This document shows, one piece after another, positions 4,331 through 13,753 of a stretch of DNA of 64,000 bases; position 1 is the stretch's first letter, and every line of letters begins with the position of its first letter. Where the stretch lies: the NCBI GenBank assembly GCA_965226585.1, contig OZ245366.1, forward strand, positions 576,001-640,000, in the 5' to 3' direction. The position numbers were made by a program, and so were the translations under genes. The DNA comes from Thermodesulfobacteriota bacterium. Lineage in GTDB: Bacteria > Desulfobacterota_D > UBA1144 > Nemesobacterales > Mycalebacteriaceae. The notes under the pieces are model-generated. The model searched no databases. It was not told where the DNA came from and was given only the letters and a program-made list of their open reading frames with translations.

Positions 4331-5514
4331 GCGTGGGCGGCACAAAAAAGCGGCTTGGAATTCTGGGCGGCGGACAGTTGGGGCAGATGCTGTGCATCGC
4401 CGCAAAAGAGTCAAAAAACAAAGAACTGAGAGCGAGCGGTGTTGAGACGTTTGTTCTTGACCCGTCCGCAGACTGCCCGGCGGCGAATGTGTGTTCAAAC
4501 TTCACGCAAGGAGATTTCAGAAATGCCGAAGATGTTCTTGCCTTTGGCGAAAAGGTTGATGTTCTAACGATTGAGATAGAGCACGTGAACACGGACGCGC
4601 TCACGGAACTTGTGAAAGAAGGGGTGGATGTACATCCGTCTCCCGAAATAATTTCCTGCATACAGGACAAGGGGTCGCAGAAGCAGTTTTACAGAGACAA
4701 TCAGATTCCCATCAGGCCGCCGTTTGATGGGATAGCAACCGTTGTTGAGACGGCTGATGAAATACGGCAGTACGCAAAGAAGCACAACATTTTTTCGTTT
4801 GTGCAGAAACTGTGCAAAGGCGGCTATGACGGGCGCGGCGTGTTTGTTGTCCGCTCGCCGGATGACCTTGACCGTCTTCTTAAAGGCGCGTCTGTGGTTG
4901 AGCGTTTTGTTGAGATTGAGAAGGAGTTGTCCGTTATTGTGGCGCAAAACGCGAACGGGGAGACGGTTTGTTTTCCGCCGGTTGAGATGGCTTTCAACAG
5001 CGAGGCAAACCTTGTTGAGTTTGTTTCCTGCCCCGCGAGTGTCAGCAGTCAGGTTTCCGGTGAATGCGAAAAGATTGCCGCAGATATTGCCAAGGTGTGG
5101 AATCTTCGCGGCATTCTTGCCGTTGAGATGTTTCTCTCAAAAGACGGCGCGGTGATTGTGAACGAGTCCGCCCCTCGTCCTCACAACAGCGGGCATCACA
5201 CAATAGAGGCGTGTGTTACATCGCAATACGAGCAATGTTTGCTTGCCGTGCTGGGGCTTCCGCTTGGCGACACATCTTTGAAAATCCCGTCTGTGATGGT
5301 GAACATACTTGGAGAGCCGGGGCACAGCGGCGATGCGGTTTATAAGGGGCTTGAGGAGAGCATGAAAGTGGAGGGGGCGAATTTTCACATATACGGCAAG
5401 CGGCAGACAAAGCCGTTCAGGAAGATGGGGCACGTTACGGTTGTTGACGAAAATATGGAGAGCGCCTTTGAAAAAGCGCGGAGTATCAAACAAAATCTAA
5501 AGGTGGTGTCATGA
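4327..5514 (+). CDS. purK: N5-carboxyaminoimidazole ribonucleotide synthase
   Basis: GILGGGQLG, GGYDGRG, NESAPRPHNSGH, YGK...RKMGHVT; adjacent to purE. Confidence 0.95.
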   Translation: MSVGGTKKRLGILGGGQLGQMLCIAAKESKNKELRASGVETFVLDPSADCPAANVCSNFTQGDFRNAEDVLAFGEKVDVLTIEIEHVNTDALTELVKEGVDVHPSPEIISCIQDKGSQKQFYRDNQIPIRPPFDGIATVVETADEIRQYAKKHNIFSFVQKLCKGGYDGRGVFVVRSPDDLDRLLKGASVVERFVEIEKELSVIVAQNANGETVCFPPVEMAFNSEANLVEFVSCPASVSSQVSGECEKIAADIAKVWNLRGILAVEMFLSKDGAVIVNESAPRPHNSGHHTIEACVTSQYEQCLLAVLGLPLGDTSLKIPSVMVNILGEPGHSGDAVYKGLEESMKVEGANFHIYGKRQTKPFRKMGHVTVVDENMESAFEKARSIKQNLKVVS

Positions 5515-6032
5515 GCAAGCCGGTTGCAAGTGTTGTTATGGGTTCGGATTCAGACCTCAAGGTTATGAAAGAGGCGGCGGCGTTTCTTGAGGGCGTGGGT
5601 GTTGAGACTGAGGTTACAATTGTGAGCGCGCACAGGACTCCCGAGCGGCTTTTTGATTTTGCGAAGAATGCGCACGGGCGTGGTGTTGAGGTTGTAATTG
5701 CCGGCGCGGGCGGGGCGGCTCATTTGCCCGGAATGATTGCGTCAATTTCGCCGCTTCCGGTGATTGGAGTGCCGATAAACTCGTCAAATTCGATTGACGG
5801 TGTGGATTCCGTTTTGTCTATTCTTCAAATGCCCGCAGGTGTGCCGGTTGCCACGGTAGCGGTTGACGGCGGAAAAAACGCGGGAATTCTCGCCGCTGAA
5901 ATCCTCGCGGTGAAAGACGCAAAGTTGAGGGAAAAACTGATTGAGTTCAAAAAAACTCTCGCAGACGATGTTAGGAAGAAGTTTGAGAAACTTGAGAAAG
6001 AGGGTTATGTGGAGTATTTGAAAGGGAAATAA
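5511..6032 (+). CDS. purE: N5-CAIR mutase
   Basis: MGSDSD, SAHRTP, AGAGGAAHLPGM, QMPAGVPVATV. Confidence 0.97.
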   Translation: MSKPVASVVMGSDSDLKVMKEAAAFLEGVGVETEVTIVSAHRTPERLFDFAKNAHGRGVEVVIAGAGGAAHLPGMIASISPLPVIGVPINSSNSIDGVDSVLSILQMPAGVPVATVAVDGGKNAGILAAEILAVKDAKLREKLIEFKKTLADDVRKKFEKLEKEGYVEYLKGK

Positions 6033-6036
6033 CCAA

Positions 6037-7620
6037 ATGCCGAAAAAGAATATACTGCTGATAGAGCCGGGATATAGGAACAAATATCCACCCTTGGGGC
6101 TTATGAAAATTGCCCAGTATCACGGGCCCCAAGGGAAAAACGATAATGTTCATTTTGTTAAAGGAGAAGACCAGAGCGTATTAGAACAGGATTGGGACAG
6201 GGTCTACATTACAACACTCTTTTCTTTTGAATTTAGTCGGATCAAAAAAACCATTGAGTACGCGCTGAAAGTTGCCAAAGGTGAGAACAGAAAAATCTTT
6301 GTCGGTGGTATAGCAGTTTCTCTAATGCATGAACTCTTTGTTGAAGAGAGAAACTGGGAAGGTATACGCTTTATCACGGGACTGCTTTCCAAGTCGCCAG
6401 CGAAGTCTTTGCAACTTGGCAGAGGAGATTTTTACTCAAGAGATACAAAAAGCACTCCAATAGAAGATTTGGTTCCAGATTACAGCATCTTAGACCAAGT
6501 AGATTACGACTATCCCGTTAGAGATGCTTATTTTGCTTATGCTTCCCGTGGATGTGTTCGCACCTGTCGTTTCTGTGGTGTGCCTAAATTAGAGGGTGCA
6601 CAACGTGATATGCCTTCAATATCAGGTGTTGTAGATGGCATAGCAAAACAATACGGAGAGAAGAAAGATTTGGTTCTTATGGACAACAACTTTACCGCCT
6701 CACAAAACTTTCGTGAACTTGTTGCGGAAATACAAGATTTGGGTTTTTCAAGAGGGGCAAAAATCAAGAGAGGTAAATCCAACCTGAAAAGACGTGTGGA
6801 TTTCAACCAAGGGGTTGATTCTCGTATTCTGTGTAAGAATGAGATGTTTCTAAAAGAGATGTCTAAACTTTGTGTCAGTCCTCTACGTATTGCTTTCGAC
6901 CACTGGGGGCTACGCAAACAGTATGAAGAATCTATCCGTTTTGCACACAAGTTTGATATGAATCAACTTTCTAACTATATGCTCTACAATTTCCATGATA
7001 CGCCGGAAGACCTCTACAAAAGAATGGAGTTGAACATAGACCTTAACGAAGAGCTTGGTATTCGTATTTGGTCTTTTCCTATGCGTTATCAGCCTACAAA
7101 TCTACCGAAAAGATCTCATGTAGGCGAAAAATGGACTTGGTATCAGTTGCGTTCTTTTCAACTTATTTTGCAAGCAACACACGGGGTTGTAAGCGGCAAC
7201 CCGTCTTTTTTCAACTACGCTTTCGGTAGTTCCACCGAAGAATTTAGGGAAATTCTTCTTTATCCACATCGCTATATTTTTCATAGGAAATGGTTTAAAG
7301 AACAAGGTGGACAAGGTGAATTTGAAGATTTCAAAATCCAATTGTCTAAACTGTCAGAAGATGAAAAACAGGAGCTTATTGACTGGCTTTCAGTTCAGGA
7401 TAATCGCTATATGTCGCAAGAGGAAGTGTGTTCAAAGAGGAAAGAGTTGAGGAAACGGAAGTTGAAAAGCATCCTTCCGTTTTATAAAAAGGCGATTAAG
7501 TCTGAAACGGATGAGATTTACAGACTTCAGGAAGATATGAGACGACAAGTTGATTGCAGTCTTCAAGAAGATGAATTTGTTGAAGATGCTGGGCTTGGTT
7601 ATGACAAACATGGAGATTGA
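6037..7620 (+). CDS. Radical SAM protein with cobalamin-binding-like N-terminal domain
   Basis: SRGCVRTCRFC = CxxxCxxC; N-terminal ILLIEP...PPLGL and IFVGG typical of B12-binding-domain radical SAM proteins; LMDNNF, DFNQG core motifs. Confidence 0.85.
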   Translation: MPKKNILLIEPGYRNKYPPLGLMKIAQYHGPQGKNDNVHFVKGEDQSVLEQDWDRVYITTLFSFEFSRIKKTIEYALKVAKGENRKIFVGGIAVSLMHELFVEERNWEGIRFITGLLSKSPAKSLQLGRGDFYSRDTKSTPIEDLVPDYSILDQVDYDYPVRDAYFAYASRGCVRTCRFCGVPKLEGAQRDMPSISGVVDGIAKQYGEKKDLVLMDNNFTASQNFRELVAEIQDLGFSRGAKIKRGKSNLKRRVDFNQGVDSRILCKNEMFLKEMSKLCVSPLRIAFDHWGLRKQYEESIRFAHKFDMNQLSNYMLYNFHDTPEDLYKRMELNIDLNEELGIRIWSFPMRYQPTNLPKRSHVGEKWTWYQLRSFQLILQATHGVVSGNPSFFNYAFGSSTEEFREILLYPHRYIFHRKWFKEQGGQGEFEDFKIQLSKLSEDEKQELIDWLSVQDNRYMSQEEVCSKRKELRKRKLKSILPFYKKAIKSETDEIYRLQEDMRRQVDCSLQEDEFVEDAGLGYDKHGD

Positions 7621-7644
7621 CAATTCAATTTTAGGAGGTTGTAA

Positions 7645-8682
7645 ATGCCAGAAGAAGGTTACAAGTTACTTGATGTGGGGAAAATAGAATTTGATACGGA
7701 AAACCCCCGAATTAAGAAGTCTCTCGAGAAGTATAAAGGCGAGATTACTGCAGAACGTATTGCTTTTGCTCTGCGTTCCGCTACGAGTGGAGAATCAAAA
7801 AGCGATTCAAGTTTTAACAAGCTCAAAGATTCTATCGGAGCAAATGGTGGTATAACAATTCCCATTACTGTTGTGAAGCAAGGCAAAAAGTATATTTGTA
7901 TTGATGGGAATACCCGTCTCGCAATTTATAAAGACTTTCATAAAAGTGGGTCTAAAGGAGATTGGTCAAAGATCCCTGCTTTGCTGAAAGACAATCCTGA
8001 AAAAAGTGAAATAGAAAAAATACGTGTTTCTGCACACTTGGTTGGAGCCAGAGACTGGCCCGCATACGAAAAGGCAAGGTATCTTCATGACTTGTACTAT
8101 TCAGAACTAATGAGTTACAGCGAAATGGTAGCACTATGCGGAGGAAACAAGAAGGCAATAGAAAGTCAGATTCAAGCATATAAGGACATGAATGAGTTCT
8201 ACCGTGATATCGTTGACGATACGGCATTCCAGATTGATCGTTTTAGTGGGTTTCAGGAATTGCAAAAATCTGGAATTAAAGATGCAATTTTTAGTGCAGG
8301 ACTTGAATTGAAGGATTTTGGAGAGTGGATACGCGATGGGAAAATAGAGCGCTTGGAAGATGTCCGTGAGCTGAAGAAGGGGGTTCTTAGTGATGAGGAA
8401 GCCAGAAAAGTTTTCTTGAGTGGTGGTGTTAATTCTATAAAAGACGCCATCAAAGTTATGGAGAGAAATCAGGACTCAAAAAGAGACAAGCCTCTGGGCA
8501 GTTCTACTTTGGAAGAATCTACAACCTACCAGATAGCGGAGGTTCTTTCCCGCCGCATCAATGAAATGCCTTTTCATGAAATTCGCACGCTTCAAAACAG
8601 AGATGGTGGTTCTGAACAAGTCTTAATACTTGAGGAATTGATGGGGCGCCTGAAACAGTTACTAGATAATGTCCCAGAGTGA
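7645..8682 (+). CDS. ParB/Sulfiredoxin N-terminal domain protein with putative HTH (island paralog 1)
   Basis: ENPR, GGITIPI, IDGNTRLA (ParB/Srx GxxR motif); RBS AGGAGG at 7633-7638. Confidence 0.75.
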   Translation: MPEEGYKLLDVGKIEFDTENPRIKKSLEKYKGEITAERIAFALRSATSGESKSDSSFNKLKDSIGANGGITIPITVVKQGKKYICIDGNTRLAIYKDFHKSGSKGDWSKIPALLKDNPEKSEIEKIRVSAHLVGARDWPAYEKARYLHDLYYSELMSYSEMVALCGGNKKAIESQIQAYKDMNEFYRDIVDDTAFQIDRFSGFQELQKSGIKDAIFSAGLELKDFGEWIRDGKIERLEDVRELKKGVLSDEEARKVFLSGGVNSIKDAIKVMERNQDSKRDKPLGSSTLEESTTYQIAEVLSRRINEMPFHEIRTLQNRDGGSEQVLILEELMGRLKQLLDNVPE

Positions 8683-9112
8683 AAAACATAGAGAACTTAT
8701 TCTGACAGTATCTGCCTCACTTCAAAAGAGATATGTTGGAATTAAATTAGTTAATGATCTTCCCAAGTGTCCCGGTGAAGATATCCCTCCGCTAATCAGA
8801 GGTTTTAGACCTGATGTGTATGCATGTGATGAAGATACTGTGATTATTATAGCTGAAGCCAAAACGAATATAGACATAGACAATAGGCATACTCGAGATC
8901 AAGTGTCATCGTTTATAAGCCATTTAGAAAACGATAATAGACAAGGAACTTTCGTCCTTGCTGTAGCGGGTACGGGAGCCGACATTGCCAAAACTGTATT
9001 AAGATTTATTTGTAAAGAAATGAAGATAGCAAGTACGCAAATTCAGATTTTTGATACTTGTGACTACTGGAATTTTGACTTTGTTGGTGGGGTTAAATGG
9101 CATTTAATTTAA
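8669..9112 (+). CDS. Small putative PD-(D/E)xK restriction-endonuclease-fold protein
   Basis: SEKH..L helix, then FRPDVYA...IIAEAKT matching PD-xn-(D/E)xK; overlaps both neighbours. Confidence 0.6.
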   Translation: MSQSEKHRELILTVSASLQKRYVGIKLVNDLPKCPGEDIPPLIRGFRPDVYACDEDTVIIIAEAKTNIDIDNRHTRDQVSSFISHLENDNRQGTFVLAVAGTGADIAKTVLRFICKEMKIASTQIQIFDTCDYWNFDFVGGVKWHLI

Positions 9113-10590
9113 GGAGACCGCCTAGGCTTGCCCCTAAGTTGGAGACCTATCCCTATCAGCTAGATGCTGTTAGGGCAGTTCAATCACTTCCCTATGCGGC
9201 AATTTTTCATGAGCAGGGACTTGGAAAAACAAAAATTGCAATTGATTTGATCCTATCTTGGCTTGAAGGTGATGCGGTAGACACGGTATTTATTGTCACA
9301 AAGAAAATGTTGGTTCAAAATTGGGTCAACGAATTGAAAATTCACTCCTACATAACCCCATATGTACTATCGGAAAAAAAAGGGAAAAACAATCTTGCTC
9401 TCAATTCTCCAGTACTTGTATATGTGATGAATTATGAAGTTGTATCCGCCAATAAAGAACTGATTGACCTTTTCCTCAAGACTTGCCGCGTTGGAGTTGT
9501 GCTGGATGAAAGTCAGAAAATTAAGAACCCAAATGCACAATTAACTCAAGACTTTCTTTCTCTGTCTGACAGTTTTTCCCGTCGAGTAATTTTGACAGGA
9601 ACTCCAGTTGCTAATCGTCCCTATGATCTTTGGAGCCAAATCAAATTTCTTGATTCCGGAGATTCTCTCGGTGATTCATTTTCTGCATTCAAAAATTCAG
9701 TTGATATTCCGAATAGGCGTACAAGTCAGGAACAGTATGGGAAAACTCTTTTGTCCGTTATGGAGAAGATCAAAAGTTTCTCTGTTAGAGAAACCAAGAA
9801 AACTGCTGGACTGAGCTTACCATCCAAAACAATCGTTACCCATTTCGTTGATTTAGAATCTCGTCAAGCAGAGATATACTCATCTTACAAAGATGACCTT
9901 ACTTATGAATTTTCAAGAGAAGGCGAAATTGTTAAAGATGACGCAGATTATATTTTGAAACTTTTGTTGAGATTGGTTCAATGTGCCTCTAACCCAATTC
10001 TTGTTGATCAAAAGTACGACAAGTCACCCGGCAAATTTGTAGAATTAATAAGTCTATTGGAAGATATTGACATTCAAAGCACTAAAGTTATTTTGTGGAC
10101 TGGGTTTATAGAGAATGTAGAGTGGTTTAGCAACAAACTTAAAAGTTTGTCTCCAGCCAAAGTACACGGAAATCTTCCAATTGACAGGAGGAATAGAGAA
10201 ATAGAAAAGTTTAAATCCGATCATTCTTGTAGAATGCTTTTGGCTACTCCGGGAGCTGCCAAAGAGGGATTGACATTGACAGTAGCCAGTCACGCAGTAT
10301 TCTACGACCGAGGTTTTAGTCTTGATGATTATATTCAAGCTCAAGACCGTATTCATCGAATATCTCAGACCGAAGATTGCTTTGTCCACAATTTGATTGC
10401 AAAGCAAACGATTGATGAATGGGTGGATGTATTGCTCAATGCTAAACATCAAGCCGCACAGTTGACACAAGGTGACATTTCAATATCTGAATTTGAAGAA
10501 GAATTTTCTTTTGATATTTCAGATGTTTTAAGTCAAGTCCTTAACTTGAAACTCAACAAATCTGACGGTAATGGAGAAGGAAATGAATGA
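9097..10590 (+). CDS. SNF2-family (SF2) helicase/ATPase
   Basis: HEQGLGKT (I), VLDESQKIKN (II), LTGTPVAN (III), EGLTLT (V), QAQDRIHRISQ (VI). Confidence 0.92.
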   Translation: MAFNLRRPPRLAPKLETYPYQLDAVRAVQSLPYAAIFHEQGLGKTKIAIDLILSWLEGDAVDTVFIVTKKMLVQNWVNELKIHSYITPYVLSEKKGKNNLALNSPVLVYVMNYEVVSANKELIDLFLKTCRVGVVLDESQKIKNPNAQLTQDFLSLSDSFSRRVILTGTPVANRPYDLWSQIKFLDSGDSLGDSFSAFKNSVDIPNRRTSQEQYGKTLLSVMEKIKSFSVRETKKTAGLSLPSKTIVTHFVDLESRQAEIYSSYKDDLTYEFSREGEIVKDDADYILKLLLRLVQCASNPILVDQKYDKSPGKFVELISLLEDIDIQSTKVILWTGFIENVEWFSNKLKSLSPAKVHGNLPIDRRNREIEKFKSDHSCRMLLATPGAAKEGLTLTVASHAVFYDRGFSLDDYIQAQDRIHRISQTEDCFVHNLIAKQTIDEWVDVLLNAKHQAAQLTQGDISISEFEEEFSFDISDVLSQVLNLKLNKSDGNGEGNE

Positions 10591-11629
10591 TAGAAAAATA
10601 ACTATCAAAATACTCAATAGTGAGGTAACTGTCTCGGATGATTATATGTCCATTGAAGACCTTTTGTATTTGAAAGACAACCCAAGGGTATTCTCTTGTG
10701 TTCATGAAGTCGACAACTTTGAAACTCTGTCGCCTATTGAACAGCAATCAATCATCCAGCAAAACCTTCTGAATGAAACGAGTGTAAAAAACTTGAGGCC
10801 TGATATTATATCGCATGGCGGATTGATAGAGCCTATTCTAATTAGATTGGATACAAAAGAAGTTATAGAAGGAAACTCAAGATTGGCAGTTTTCCGCGAC
10901 CTACATGCCAATCCTCATATTGAAGGGGAATGGGATTTAATTCCCTGTCACATAGTTGCCACTCTCTCTGATGAGCAGCAGGATGCTTATCTGAGCCAAA
11001 TTCACGTTAAGGGGAAGACTCCGTGGACTCCATACGGAAAATCTAATTTTGCTTATGTGAGAAGCCAAGAGGGAGTGCCCGTTAACAAGATAGCACAAAG
11101 GTTTGGCGTGACTACAACTGAAATTAAGACAAGGATAAAAACCGTAGATTTAATGAAAAGAAATGGAGACAACAAAAATCATCATTTTAGCTACTACGAT
11201 GTGCTTGTAAGAAACAGAGCAATTTCTGAAGCAATAGACGAGAACTCTGGCAGTATGGAATTGCGTTCATTCTTGCTGGAAGAGATAAAAAATATGGACT
11301 CTGACGATGAAAACCAGAATCCGTTTACAGCACAAGATATGAGAGATAAATTACCTCCGATACTGAAAAAACCAAAGATTTTAAAGAAATATATCAATGG
11401 TAACCAGACACTTGAAGATGCGTATCAATTTTCCCGTATTAGTGATTCCCAACAAAAACTCAGGCGGGCCAACGATTCGATTAGCGATATTGGTAAGAAG
11501 GAGTTAGAGCGTTTGGACCGTAGTGGTCTTAGTGCAGTCAAAATAGAAGTGAGGGATTTGAGTAAGGCAATAGAGAGAATAAAAAAGATTGTTCAAGAGA
11601 TAGAACAAGAATTTCAATCTAAACAGTAG
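10583..11629 (+). CDS. ParB/Sulfiredoxin N-terminal domain protein with putative HTH (island paralog 2)
   Basis: DNPR, GGLIEPI, IEGNSRLA; HTH-like VNKIAQRFGVTTTEI; GGAG RBS before ATG 10583 (alternative ATG 10571). Confidence 0.75.
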   Translation: MNDRKITIKILNSEVTVSDDYMSIEDLLYLKDNPRVFSCVHEVDNFETLSPIEQQSIIQQNLLNETSVKNLRPDIISHGGLIEPILIRLDTKEVIEGNSRLAVFRDLHANPHIEGEWDLIPCHIVATLSDEQQDAYLSQIHVKGKTPWTPYGKSNFAYVRSQEGVPVNKIAQRFGVTTTEIKTRIKTVDLMKRNGDNKNHHFSYYDVLVRNRAISEAIDENSGSMELRSFLLEEIKNMDSDDENQNPFTAQDMRDKLPPILKKPKILKKYINGNQTLEDAYQFSRISDSQQKLRRANDSISDIGKKELERLDRSGLSAVKIEVRDLSKAIERIKKIVQEIEQEFQSKQ

Positions 11630-11685
11630 TGTTCTATTGACAATCAAGACTGATCGGTTTTGATCAATCTCAGAGGGGGAAGCCT

Positions 11686-11880
11686 TTGGGAAAAAAGCAA
11701 ATCAAATGCTTAAAATGCGGCGGGGAAGAGTTTATGACTCTGCCTGACAGTTATTCAATCTATAGAGCGGTAGGAGACAAACTCGGTTTTATTAGAACGG
11801 AACTTACCAATGATGACGATACTCTTTACTGTCGGGATTGTAGCGCGGAACTTGATACGGAAGGCGTTGAGTTTATATAA
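11686..11880 (+). CDS. Small Zn-ribbon protein (CxxC...CxxC)
   Basis: CLKC and CRDC pairs in 64 aa; purine-rich RBS AGAGGGGG before TTG; fills the gap exactly. Confidence 0.6.
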   Translation: MGKKQIKCLKCGGEEFMTLPDSYSIYRAVGDKLGFIRTELTNDDDTLYCRDCSAELDTEGVEFI

Positions 11881-11889
11881 AGAGTACCC

Positions 11890-12360
11890 TCACCCCGTCA
11901 ACCTCATATCAAACTCAAAAGCCAGCGGTTTTGCTTTCTTCACAACCCGCTCAAACCCTTTGTGCTGTGGGTTCAGGATGTAAATCCACTCTCTTGGCAC
12001 AACTGCGCTTGGAACCGCAAGGGCAAGAGATTTGCCGCTTTCAATCCATCTGTTTCCTGCGTCTTTTGTTTCTTGTAAGGGCTTGGGATCCCGCCAGTTT
12101 GCGGGAAGCTTTTTCATTTCAATGTAAATCACATCGCTTTCCTTTAGCCGTAACTCAAACAGGTGGAACGGGCTTTCTGTTGCCTCTCCCTCGGTATTGA
12201 CCAGAACCTCAAGAATTGCCAGCGATTCAGACCCCGCCGTGTAAACACATGCTTCCCCCTTGCTGTTCCATCTTCCGCCGCGCTGACTGGCTCCCTCTCC
12301 GCTAAAGGCGCGAGTCGCGTATTTGTTTGCCACAAGACGATAAACACTTACTGTTCTCAA
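11890..12360 (-). CDS. RES-domain toxin (NAD+ phosphorylase family)
   Basis: VYRL, GGRWN, YTA...LE, VPSA motifs; TTG start at 12360 overlaps antitoxin TGA. Confidence 0.9.
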   Translation of the reverse strand: MRTVSVYRLVANKYATRAFSGEGASQRGGRWNSKGEACVYTAGSESLAILEVLVNTEGEATESPFHLFELRLKESDVIYIEMKKLPANWRDPKPLQETKDAGNRWIESGKSLALAVPSAVVPREWIYILNPQHKGFERVVKKAKPLAFEFDMRLTG

Positions 12361-12779
12361 ACAATTACGCCCCATTCAATGCATTCAAGCAGACCTATGA
12401 CCTCATCGGCTTCCGCAGATGTTCCGAGCATATCAATGGGCTTGCGGTAATCTAGACCCCGGACGGGGCGGGTCATCCAGCGCATCGCCACCTCCCTGTC
12501 TCCGCCGTAAAACTCAGTTGTTACATCCAACACTTTGACAAACCTGTGCAAACGGTCGCTTTCACTCTTGTTGAACTTTTTCGCTCTGGCTCTGCGGCTG
12601 AGAGTTGCCGGAGATATAGACACTATCGCGGCAATCTCTTTCTTGCTTAAACCCGAAACTTCGGAAAGTTTGTTGTAGACCTTGTAGGGAAACCCCTCAT
12701 CCAGAGCCTCGTGAAGCTCCGCGCCCTGCCTCGGAACCCCCGTTTCATACCAGATGTCTTTTTTCTTTTTTGCCGCCAT
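12357..12779 (-). CDS. Xre/MbcA/ParS-type antitoxin
   Basis: HTH (ISPATLSRR), ESDRL.R, RWMTRP..GL...KPIDML, C-terminal IEWGVIV; upstream of RES toxin. Confidence 0.9.
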   Translation of the reverse strand: MAAKKKKDIWYETGVPRQGAELHEALDEGFPYKVYNKLSEVSGLSKKEIAAIVSISPATLSRRARAKKFNKSESDRLHRFVKVLDVTTEFYGGDREVAMRWMTRPVRGLDYRKPIDMLGTSAEADEVIGLLECIEWGVIV

Positions 12780-12789
12780 TTTACGCCAC

Positions 12790-12836
12790 TATCATTTGAT
12801 ATACTCTTACTATATCAAATGATACCCCCGGCGCAA
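12790..12836 (-). promoter_or_regulatory. TA promoter with overlapping 14-bp inverted-repeat operator
   Basis: TATCATTTGATATA-N7-TATATCAAATGATA (12790-12824); minus strand TTGCGC-16-TATAGT with extended TG, -10 box inside the repeat. Confidence 0.75.
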
Positions 12837-12844
12837 AACCACGC

Positions 12845-13753
12845 TCACAAAAGTTTTATCAAATCGTTTATCTCTTTCTCTTTCATCACAACATCCACAA
12901 TCAGCGCGGTCATTATCAGAAGCATGTAGATGATTGAAGCGGCAAATGCGGCTTCGTAGTCTTTTCCTTTTACGGCGCACCTGACCACCATGAAGTTGAA
13001 ATACACCCCCAGCGCAAACGCGGCGGCTGCGAAATAGACCGATGTGATGCCCATAAGAGACATTATCAATGTTAAAGGAATCAACGAAATTGAGTAGAGA
13101 ACTATCAGAATGTTTGTGTATTTCTCGCCAAAAGCGACCGGCAGGACGGTAATGCCCGCTTTTTCATACTCGTGGCTGTATTTCTGCGCAAGCGCCCAGA
13201 AATGCGGCGGCTGCCACAACATCATGAAGGCAAATAAAACAAACCCGTCCATGCCAATCTCAGGGCGCACCGCCGCGTAGCCGATTAAAACCGGAAGCGC
13301 GCCCGGAATGCCGCCCAGTATCGTGCCGAACGGAGAACGCCTTTTAAGAAAAATAGTGTACAAAACCGTGTAACTCACCGCCGCAAGCACAATCAACAAA
13401 GCATTGTAAAGATTTAGCCAGACCGCAGACACCGCCACAGAACCGGCAATCATAACGGACGCCACAACAACGGCGTTGCGCTCTCCAAGCCGCTCAAGCG
13501 CGCCCCGCCTCGCCGTGAGACGGTCCATCATCTTGTCGGCCTTTCTGTCCAGATAATTGTTCAGAATCGCGGAACCCGCCGCGCTCGCAAGAAGCGTCAG
13601 ACAGCCAAGCACAGCGACAGACAAACCCGGAACCGCCTTGCCCGCTATCACCATTCCGGCAAATCCCGTGAAAACAACGCTCAAAATGATTCCCGGCTTT
13701 GAGAGAATCACGGTTGAAACAATCACTTCACTGACGGCTTTTCCGCTGTTCAT
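12845..13753 (-). CDS. cyoE: Protoheme IX farnesyltransferase (heme o synthase)
   Basis: KPGI, NNYLDRKADKMMDR, YT.FLKR, WQPPHFWAL. Confidence 0.95.
   Translation of the reverse strand: MNSGKAVSEVIVSTVILSKPGIILSVVFTGFAGMVIAGKAVPGLSVAVLGCLTLLASAAGSAILNNYLDRKADKMMDRLTARRGALERLGERNAVVVASVMIAGSVAVSAVWLNLYNALLIVLAAVSYTVLYTIFLKRRSPFGTILGGIPGALPVLIGYAAVRPEIGMDGFVLFAFMMLWQPPHFWALAQKYSHEYEKAGITVLPVAFGEKYTNILIVLYSISLIPLTLIMSLMGITSVYFAAAAFALGVYFNFMVVRCAVKGKDYEAAFAASIIYMLLIMTALIVDVVMKEKEINDLIKLL

Follow-up and report, generated by a model that had tools for sequence, protein, structure and literature searches.

A five-gene radical-SAM, ParB and SNF2 cassette as a candidate minimal form of a modular bacterial defence system

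We analysed a stretch of 64,000 nucleotides (the window) from a Thermodesulfobacteriota genome (contig OZ245366.1, positions 576,001 to 640,000). It encodes a cassette of five genes at 6037..11629: a radical S-adenosylmethionine (radical-SAM) enzyme, two ParB/Srx-fold proteins (ParB1 and ParB2), a small PD-(D/E)xK nuclease-like protein (PDx) and a SNF2-family ATPase. The five genes are intact, horizontally acquired and mobile. They form a real but unnamed cassette, a candidate defence system that the window shows in a rare minimal form. The cassette is the core enzyme plus one effector module of a widespread modular system, of which five genes are not the usual form. With a probability of about 55%, we read it, from sequences and gene context, as a restriction-modification-like defence in which the radical-SAM enzyme would mark host DNA and the rest of the block would destroy unmarked DNA.

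Results

The five genes of the cassette

The cassette comprises five open reading frames on the + strand, listed here with one sub-feature of the enzyme.

6037..7620, + strand: radical-SAM enzyme, 527 aa; N-terminal B12-binding-like domain, CxxxCxxC at residues 173-180, acidic C-terminal tail
6412..6453, + strand: loop of the enzyme between the B12-like and radical-SAM domains; candidate lost docking site of a GHKL ATPase
7645..8682, + strand: ParB/Srx-fold protein 1 (ParB1), 345 aa; N-terminal nucleotide-binding-type domain, then a predicted helix-turn-helix
8669..9112, + strand: small PD-(D/E)xK nuclease-like protein (PDx), 147 aa; predicted cutter
9097..10590, + strand: minimal SNF2-family ATPase/translocase, 497 aa, without accessory domains
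10571..11629, + strand: ParB/Srx-fold protein 2 (ParB2), 352 aa; old paralogue of ParB1

The first two genes are separated by 24 nt and the later junctions overlap by 14, 16 and 20 nt. A second ATG in the fifth gene, at 10583, is preceded by a GGAG and agrees with the N-terminus of the homologue in locus L004; it is probably the true start, with an overlap of 8 nt. The G+C content of the cassette is 39.1% against 51.6% for the genome, and is equally low in 0.6% of the 5.6-kb windows of the genome. An earlier reading of this DNA from its sequence alone had described five AT-rich genes with this spacing, the motifs CxxxCxxC, two GNxR, PD..EAK and those of SNF2, and no DNA methyltransferase; the genes and motifs are all there, and no methyltransferase family was found among the five proteins with Pfam, PADLOC or NCBIfam. 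A public contig spans positions 5000-13500 unbroken, with zero differences from the window. Since it probably comes from the source sample, it is a check on the assembly, where it rules out a mis-join, and not independent support. The radical-SAM gene begins 4 nt past the stop codon of the host gene purE, so that the cassette is presumably transcribed from the purK-purE promoter; promoter-like (17 against 13.5) and terminator-like (9 against 7.4) signals of its own were at chance level.

The SNF2 protein scored above the Pfam cut-off, the enzyme matched the B12-binding and Radical_SAM families below it, and the second and third genes had no Pfam match. NCBIfam gave nothing above cut-off for any of the five proteins. 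PADLOC had no model matching the radical-SAM protein or ParB2, matched the third gene weakly, ParB1 partially and the SNF2 protein as a generic helicase.

The enzyme carries CxxxCxxC in a radical-SAM domain and thereby belongs to the radical-SAM superfamily; C173, C177 and C180 are invariant in 151 of 151 aligned homologues. Its Pfam scores are low (B12-binding, PF02310, E 0.0014, 18.9 bits against a cut-off of 32.1; Radical_SAM, E 0.013). Among its distant homologues, 24 of 25 match PF04055, several above the cut-off, and the best E for PF02310 is 2.8e-5. The enzyme also matches phrog_9298 (E 2.7e-40). The acidic motif of the C-terminal tail is present in 149 of 151 homologues, and is kept where the ATPase described below is missing. 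The host encodes cobQ and three B12-binding proteins above cut-off. Relatives of the enzyme made up 6236 of 8000 scored candidates, with 2166 representatives at 50% clustering.

The two ParB proteins are old paralogues (ParB2 against the ParB1 family: hhalign 99.9%, 22% identity). N20-P-R22, G88-N-T-R91, H131 and W138 of ParB1, and N37-P-R39, E100-G-N102, R104, H145 and W152 of ParB2, are each invariant in 28 homologues. Hence both families conserve the G, N and R of a GxxR phosphate-binding motif, which in ParB2 is G101-N-S-R104. The invariant H and W sit where canonical ParB has its hydrolysis motif. ParB1 matched the N-terminal parts of two PADLOC models (PDC-M38A, E 6e-11; PD-Lambda-5_A, E 8e-5, residues 11-94); its PDB matches were weak (SbnI, Noc, ParB) and its Atlas neighbours were ParB_N clusters. 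No ParA is encoded among the five cassette genes.

PDx is predicted to be a PD-(D/E)xK nuclease at the level of its motif (P48-D49...E63-A-K65): P48, D49, A64, K65 and Q78 are invariant in 31 homologues, and H7, E63 and D69 are conserved in at least 90% of them. It had no Pfam or PHROG match, and PDB searches gave chance matches. The SNF2 protein has the Pfam domains SNF2-rel_dom (E 7.6e-33) and Helicase_C (E 9.3e-15), with Walker A at residue 39, Walker B at 135 and motifs III, V and VI at 167, 387 and 414. Its core matches ZorD, DpdE, DrmD and BrxH generically, far below the NCBIfam cut-offs.

A widespread modular system around the enzyme

We examined the loci of the best 80 of 175 genome matches and the best 80 of 460 metagenome matches to the enzyme, of three of 12 near-full-length plasmid matches, and six close viral loci. 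Related loci and a few duplicate ones occur in these sets, and the genome set was the source of the labelling profiles. A GHKL ATPase (Pfam HATPase_c_3), whose closest solved relative is the Hsp90-like HtpG, comes after the enzyme in 145 of the 146 close loci with at least 600 nt downstream (77/78, 59/59 and 9/9 by set). A DGQHR/DndB protein precedes the enzyme in 46/78 and 37/58 loci, and is fused to it in P0211. Of the 59 genome loci flanked by 8 kb on each side, the ParB-SNF2 module is present in 32, a pair made up of PIN and a second GHKL protein in 27 and a long nuclease-DGQHR protein in 15; combinations are common. Since the enzyme pairs with several modules across loci, the window shows the core enzyme with one of them.

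The order ParB1-PDx-SNF2-ParB2 was found in 51 of 63 SNF2-bearing loci, on either side or strand of the enzyme; the others are eight variants with three ParB genes (one cut short) and four partial modules. The radical-SAM gene usually lies downstream of this block, giving the common order ParB-PDx-SNF2-ParB-rSAM-GHKL (rSAM, radical-SAM gene). The expectation that the five-gene order would itself be conserved across phyla was thus not borne out, the conserved unit being the four-gene block. That the genes recur together as a conserved mobile unit without a name did hold. The records name hosts from groups such as Alphaproteobacteria, Gammaproteobacteria, Acidobacteriota and Gemmatimonadota; cultured carriers are Novosphingobium aromaticivorans, with plasmid pNL1, and Rhizobium leguminosarum WSM1325. 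Relatives of the system occur on conjugative plasmids and prophages. Among 120 genomes of the host phylum, ParB1 was found in seven and the enzyme in six, counting the window's own genome. Broken remnants of the cassette occur in three genomes of the same bacterial order (G040, G059, G066), and an in-frame fusion of a ParB1 N-terminus with a long DGQHR C-terminus (L280:10872-11711) is the scar of a deleted cassette.

A different arrangement was seen in six loci (L169, L191, L195, L200, L204, L205), where a four-gene module ends in the radical-SAM gene: a protein of 350-410 aa (with a NurA match in L200), a HerA-like protein of 550-580 aa, the GHKL ATPase and the enzyme.

The enzyme in the proposed place of a methyltransferase

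The sequence-only reading had proposed that the radical-SAM gene takes the position of the usual methyltransferase. Four lines of gene context point the same way: the chromosomal slot of the cassette, a DGQHR protein paired with Dam, homologues of PD-lambda-5 gene A, and a ParB operon with a C5 methyltransferase. The neighbour scans covered 91 proteins (13 from the slot) and a further 17, and neighbours were listed for 25 distant viral or phage loci. The slot has these features outside the cassette.

5511..6032, + strand: purE, host gene, left border; 84-91% identical in four congeners, the fifth being a frameshifted reading
11686..11880, + strand: 64-aa open reading frame with two CxxC motifs; slot passenger
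11890..12779, - strand: Xre-RES toxin-antitoxin pair with host-like G+C content; slot resident
12845..13753, - strand: cyoE/ctaB-type host gene, right border; 71-78% identical in 5/5 congeners

The name of the right border gene is our reading of its translation and of its cytochrome-oxidase neighbours. The enzyme was not found in any of the five congeners (genomes 95-98% complete). Their alignment with the window halts around 6030, at the purE stop, in 5/5 cases and resumes at RES-Xre or cyoE. The interval between these borders (6033-12844 in the window, loci L175-L179 in the congeners) is an exchange slot for defence genes, whose cargo differs in all six genomes of the genus; several of the cargoes begin at the purE stop or overlap with it. 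Slot exchange probably proceeds by recombination in the conserved flanks. The slot holds N6/N4 methyltransferases in three of the five congeners. Its contents are an N6/N4 methyltransferase and a PD-(D/E)xK protein in G005; an HNH protein, a methyltransferase and a DUF6996/6997 protein in G003; a methyltransferase with a TaqI-type nuclease, and a long DGQHR protein with a D12 methyltransferase, in G004; a ClpP-like protease and a weakly REase_II-like gene in G001; and a weakly REase_II-like gene in G002 (both E about 1e-4).

The 767-aa DGQHR protein of G004 has 30% identity over 733 residues with a DGQHR protein of plasmid pNL1 that adjoins a radical-SAM gene; in G004 it is followed instead by a D12 (Dam-type) adenine methyltransferase. 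Its other matches adjoin the radical-SAM gene in 2/3 genomes and 5/5 plasmids.

In three of the 25 distant viral or phage loci (L197, L199, L201), a distant enzyme homologue (36-43% local identity) comes directly after a homologue of PD-Lambda-5_A (E 4e-29, 8e-72 and 2e-30). These loci lack an ATPase and have no methyltransferase next to the enzyme; the sequence of L197 stops just past the enzyme gene. The normal partner, gene B, resembles D12 methyltransferases: the PADLOC model for it matches the Dam of G004 (E 1e-14). These two-gene prophage cassettes (L197:7894-11617, L199:8364-11614, L201:8482-11620) lie downstream of an HTH repressor gene, and those of L199 and L201 upstream of a recombinase; they are the smallest candidate system of the enzyme family. 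Viral scans seeded with the enzymes of L199 and L296 returned these themselves, one further locus and nothing else.

Finally, a third member of the ParB family in the window's genome (hhalign 97.7%) heads an operon with a C5 methyltransferase. This AT-rich operon (L299:1511-7421, about C1:1456500-1462400) encodes the ParB paralogue, a 277-aa protein of no known family, the C5 methyltransferase and a UvrD helicase beside a seryl-tRNA synthetase-like gene, and is probably another unnamed restriction-modification variant. The same genome has two more C5-methyltransferase operons (C1:157865-161074, C1:1152659-1156308), with MORC-like GHKL ATPases and, in one of them, a Vsr-like gene, as judged from their translations.

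Searches seeded with ParB1, whose results overlap the earlier locus sets, showed that each intact module has the enzyme no more than about 5 kb away. It accompanies 7/7 near-full-length plasmid matches (an eighth, partial match was set aside) and adjoins 8/8 viral loci. A single class of 401 genomes, five of which encode the enzyme, gave three matches, the seed genome included, and the enzyme is present in 3/3 of them. The enzyme is also much better conserved (56-63%) than its effectors (27-45% for ParB1 in most loci). A nuclease block never found without the enzyme, and an enzyme that serves many blocks, form the pattern of a toxic restriction activity and a protective modification.

Under host-DNA marking, the enzyme, with a [4Fe-4S] cluster, SAM and probably cobalamin, would modify DNA at an unactivated carbon, in either a base or the sugar. 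The mark would probably be a cobalamin-dependent methylation, beyond the reach of ordinary methyltransferases. ParB1 and ParB2 would bind a nucleoside triphosphate via GNxR, load on DNA as a pair and read the presence or absence of the mark, perhaps also helping the writer. SNF2 would translocate the complex, and the PD-(D/E)xK subunit would cut where the mark is missing. The Hsp90-like ATPase, which the window's lineage does without, may serve the writer in an accessory role, as a loader or a chaperone. ParB folds bind CTP, ATP or GTP via GxxR in a way that is unpredictable from sequence (10.1101/2025.10.10.680097), and a phage DNA dioxygenase has a ParB-fold activator, a precedent for a ParB-fold helper of a DNA-modifying enzyme (PMC13229309).

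A broader and more tentative suggestion, which we hold at less than even odds, is that the family forms a new class of DNA writers, cobalamin radical-SAM enzymes interchangeable with Dam and C5 methyltransferases. It would serve at least six effector types (ParB-SNF2, PIN-GHKL, long DGQHR, NurA-HerA-like, PD-lambda-5A and possibly type IV CRISPR), with short phage relatives as an anti-restriction counterpart and the window as a natural minimal version without ATPase.

Some further contexts of enzyme relatives deserve mention. Short phage-borne relatives of the phrog_9298 type occur near DNA methyltransferase and replication genes (L167:2794-5140, L192:9995-13783, L203:8790-11191, L210:7300-11170), a hint, given with no background count, of an anti-restriction role. 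On two viral contigs (L190:7076-12609, L216:7122-12585), the type IV CRISPR effectors Csf1/Cas8, Csf2/Cas7 and Csf3/Cas5 identified with PADLOC are followed by a distant enzyme homologue (35% and 32% identity) and a second radical-SAM gene; we know of no radical-SAM accessory of type IV Cas. At L186:3002-14730 a distant enzyme-ATPase pair lies amid genes for a helicase, an MrfA zinc-binding protein, a NERD-UvrD protein and an Mrr nuclease, an arrangement similar to that of DISARM.

Weighing host-DNA marking

Several observations speak against the marking of host DNA by the enzyme, the support for which is gene context throughout. Neither the B12-binding nor the radical-SAM Pfam score reaches its cut-off, no DNA-binding domain can be recognised in the enzyme, and the closest solved structures in PDB are those of MiaB and RimO (E 0.0015 or weaker), which act on tRNA and protein. 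A writer that is almost the same in many hosts could hardly vary in its sequence specificity. Radical-SAM chemistry is oxygen-sensitive, and fits poorly with genome-wide marking in a host with cytochrome oxidase genes nearby. Seven of the 59 fully flanked loci carry none of the three known effector modules, several viral homologues of the enzyme stand alone (L188, L198, L215), and G066 has an intact ParB1 without a radical-SAM gene, the rest of its module being broken or missing. The swaps are few and non-independent: the exchange between DGQHR and Dam comes from one genome, and the PD-lambda-5A loci share related enzymes (55-64% identity). The slot is not purely one for restriction-modification, with its ClpP-like protease gene and toxin-antitoxin pair. 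Lastly, an ATPase kept in 145/146 loci is unlikely to be trivial, and its loss may change or weaken the function.

Among the alternatives, the one that survives best, although we think it unlikely, is that the target of the enzyme is the invader or a protein. Infection would trigger it to tag or damage phage nucleic acid, or it would modify a subunit, and the nuclease and motor block would then cut tagged DNA or kill the cell. The tRNA and protein substrates of MiaB and RimO would fit such a role, as would the PIN and Swt1-HEPN-like RNase domains among the partner modules and the distant homologues that follow type IV CRISPR effector genes. Ophion defence also needs a radical-SAM enzyme, with no stated role as a methyltransferase (10.1101/2025.09.30.679545). 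Yet action on the invader leaves unexplained both the methyltransferase position of the enzyme beside PD-lambda-5A and the long DGQHR protein, and the fact that intact effector blocks are never found without the enzyme.

We regard as improbable a second proposal of the sequence-only reading, in which the enzyme makes a viperin-like modified nucleotide that the ParB/Srx pockets sense, activating SNF2 and the nuclease. A ParB-fold protein (the ParB pair, DGQHR or the PD-lambda-5A type) does accompany the enzyme in most contexts, and its GxxR could hold a nucleotide (10.1101/2025.10.10.680097). However, no viperin match was found in PDB or, at E up to 0.1, in PADLOC and NCBIfam, which we take to contain viperin models. 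The same ParB-fold families adjoin ordinary DNA methyltransferases, which make no signal, and the enzyme is also used by plain nuclease modules without a ParB fold (NurA-HerA-type and PIN).

The ATPase-free form

The sole exception among the 146 close loci is L004, which has the window's gene order and an enzyme 79% identical to that of the window; the two cassettes occupy different chromosomal sites. The cognate ATPase is not elsewhere in either genome: family profiles gave N-terminal matches only (E about 1e-9, against 1e-130 for true members), and the two weak GHKL matches of the window's genome cover about 80 N-terminal residues and lie within C5-methyltransferase operons. The DGQHR profile gave nothing in the window's genome, so that a displaced ATPase or DGQHR gene was discarded as an explanation. 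An assembly artefact was ruled out as well, since a single contig crosses the whole stretch. In quick trees, the window's clade is nested among ATPase-linked homologues for the enzyme (100% support, long stem of 0.76), and the SNF2 protein groups with L004 and six ATPase-linked loci (99%). Loss of the ATPase is therefore a derived state. Between the window and L004, all five genes have a non-synonymous divergence (pN) of 0.12-0.27 and a synonymous divergence (pS) of 0.63-0.77, with synonymous sites near saturation and proteins 57-81% identical. All five genes are under purifying selection, and the ATPase-free form is maintained.

Two further ATPase-free forms were found. In L279 the enzyme is the last of the five genes, and the same genome holds a second, complete copy. 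The prophage locus L296 has the window's order, with an ATGA overlap between the enzyme and ParB1; its enzyme is shorter and belongs to a different subfamily (hhalign 94%, 29% identity, also phrog_9298). In L300 the order is SNF2-ParB2-rSAM-GHKL-ParB1. Gene orders in the system can thus be circularly permuted, and the enzyme with its ATPase can stand ahead of ParB1; if such an arrangement lost the ATPase, the window's enzyme-ParB1 junction would result. We infer that the window's order is a circular permutation of ParB-PDx-SNF2-ParB-rSAM-GHKL from which the ATPase was deleted.

The loop between the two enzyme domains has 16 residues and a mean charge of -5.6 in 142/142 ATPase-linked homologues. 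It has 14 residues and is less acidic in 9/9 members of the window's clade (gene context known for two), and is likewise 14 residues long in L279. The loop (residues 126-139) might be a former docking site of the GHKL ATPase, which we offer as a lead only because L275-L277 keep the ATPase and the loop length without the acidic motif. These three loci break the rule that an acidic loop motif means the presence of an ATPase; only loop length tracks the loss.

It is hard to credit that the five-gene form is crippled or dependent, i.e., inactive without the ATPase or borrowing a host GHKL ATPase. Such a state would agree with the near-constant ATPase of other loci, the remnants in the same bacterial order, the two other GHKL ATPases in methyltransferase operons of the genome, the complete second copy beside L279 and the long stem of the window's clade. 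Yet the five frames and their motifs are intact, the proteins have stayed 57-81% identical to those of L004 while synonymous sites neared saturation, the two ATPase-free copies are at different chromosomal sites, and the ATPase is also missing in L296 and in the PD-lambda-5A loci.

Mobility and the residents of the slot

No integrase, repeat or origin was found within the cassette, and the search for attachment sites or target duplications gave nothing beyond chance-like short repeats. Least probable of all is that the cassette chiefly serves its own upkeep, as a selfish module for addiction or for the exclusion of mobile elements: relatives on conjugative plasmids and prophages, a patchy presence with remnants that denotes frequent gain and loss, and the inherently addictive nature of writer-plus-nuclease pairs would suit it, but it is compatible with host-DNA marking, the other slot occupants are typical defence genes, and the cassette has no integrase, repeat or origin.

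The RES-Xre pair that the sequence-only reading had noted next door is present (RES 11890-12375, Xre 12357-12779, both on the - strand; Pfam RES, Xre-like-HTH and Xre_MbcA_ParS_C above cut-off). It is not part of the cassette: it is a resident of the slot, found in three of the five congeners without the cassette. The 64-aa CxxC gene has a homologue in the slot of two of the five cassette-free congeners and is absent from L004, and both were therefore ruled out as cassette parts. This small gene also has a weak match at C1:415705-415959, beside another AT-rich gene. Just upstream of xre, a perfect 14-nt inverted repeat with a 7-nt spacer (12790-12824) overlaps promoter-like sites on both strands and is likely the Xre-RES operator. 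In L176 the 3' end of cyoE is duplicated.

Discussion

Bacterial marks of self-DNA other than base methylation include phosphorothioation and 7-deazaguanine. If host-DNA marking is correct, a radical-SAM writer would add a further kind, present in a wide range of bacteria as well as on plasmids and in prophages; such a mark may escape standard methylome calling, and an anti-phage defence would be tied to the supply of vitamin B12. The window is a natural deletion experiment, which reveals the genes that are dispensable under continued selection and gives the smallest cloneable unit (5.6 kb). It also points to one loop of the enzyme as a possible contact of the ATPase.

Comparison with known systems

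The sequence-only reading could match the cassette to no named system, and this stands: PADLOC gave no full-system match, and the components that define known systems are lacking. Classical type I-III restriction-modification requires a SAM-dependent DNA methyltransferase, absent from the cassette. We found no published description of the system in a search with subscription journals largely outside its scope; the candidate tables of two preprints (10.1101/2025.09.30.679545, with more than 500 candidate systems, and 10.1101/2025.10.10.680097) could include the cassette.

The enzyme resembles the class B cobalamin-dependent radical-SAM methyltransferases in a putative B12-binding-like N-terminus and a CxxxCxxC barrel. 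However, its NCBIfam matches to several such families are weak and far below cut-off, and none of the characterised members in the searched libraries acts on DNA. CmoX was dropped as a possible precedent of a B12-dependent DNA cytosine methylase, since the protein of that name is a carboxymethyltransferase from a phage (PMC12783734).

PD-lambda-5 has been validated as an anti-phage system; its authors describe a compact combination of restriction-modification and abortive infection, with the label "methyltransferase" (Vassallo et al. 2022, PMC9519451). Its gene A has a ParB fold with an N-terminal domain of the NPR/GNxR type and is paired with a DNA-marking gene; the ParB1 family matches the A homologue of L199 with hhalign at 85%. 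In contrast, its gene B is a D12-type methyltransferase where the cassette has a radical-SAM enzyme. The cassette also has its nuclease and SNF2 motor as separate proteins, and its two ParB paralogues lack the long C-terminal region found in A. No full-length gene A homologue was found in the cassette (residues 11-94 only), and gene B had no match.

The Dpd system likewise combines an unusual writer with a ParB-fold protein (DpdB) and a SNF2-type protein (DpdE). DpdB is matched by the DGQHR protein that accompanies the enzyme in the full system (E 1.5e-17), and DpdE, generically, by the SNF2 protein. Unlike Dpd, the five proteins match neither DpdA, DpdC nor any other Dpd component, and the DpdB-like gene is missing from the window. 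QueE, the radical-SAM enzyme of Dpd, makes the precursor base, and is not matched by the cassette enzyme in NCBIfam.

The Dnd and Ssp systems resemble ours in joining one modification core with exchangeable nucleases and an optional DndB/DGQHR protein, found in 46/78 loci of the enzyme system and in 52% of Dnd taxa (PMC10853773); DndC is unrelated to radical-SAM enzymes (same source). The cassette differs in having no match to a cysteine desulfurase, the PP-loop DndC or the ABC-type DndD; in Pfam, PADLOC and NCBIfam none of the five proteins matched DndC/D/E or SspB/C/D. The operons with MORC- or MutL-like GHKL ATPases (PMC2292703) have, like the full form of the enzyme system, a GHKL ATPase, a SWI2/SNF2 helicase and nucleases. 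They use DNA methylases, however, and the main text of that paper mentions neither "radical" nor "ParB"; the ATPase of the enzyme system is closest to HtpG/Hsp90, and is missing from the window.

Ophion also places a radical-SAM enzyme in a defence context, but with PHP and PRTase partners (10.1101/2025.09.30.679545), neither of which occurs in the cassette or among its recurring neighbours. Prokaryotic viperins are radical-SAM defence enzymes too, although they are single enzymes that make ddhNTPs. Type I Zorya is marked by the ZorA-B membrane pair, DISARM by the DrmA-B-C core and BREX by the PglX-Z core. These components are not among the five proteins, which match the three systems through the SNF2 core only. 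On the basis of these absences and of the blank searches, we take the gene system to be new; its logic, if the enzyme does mark host DNA, would be the familiar one of restriction-modification.

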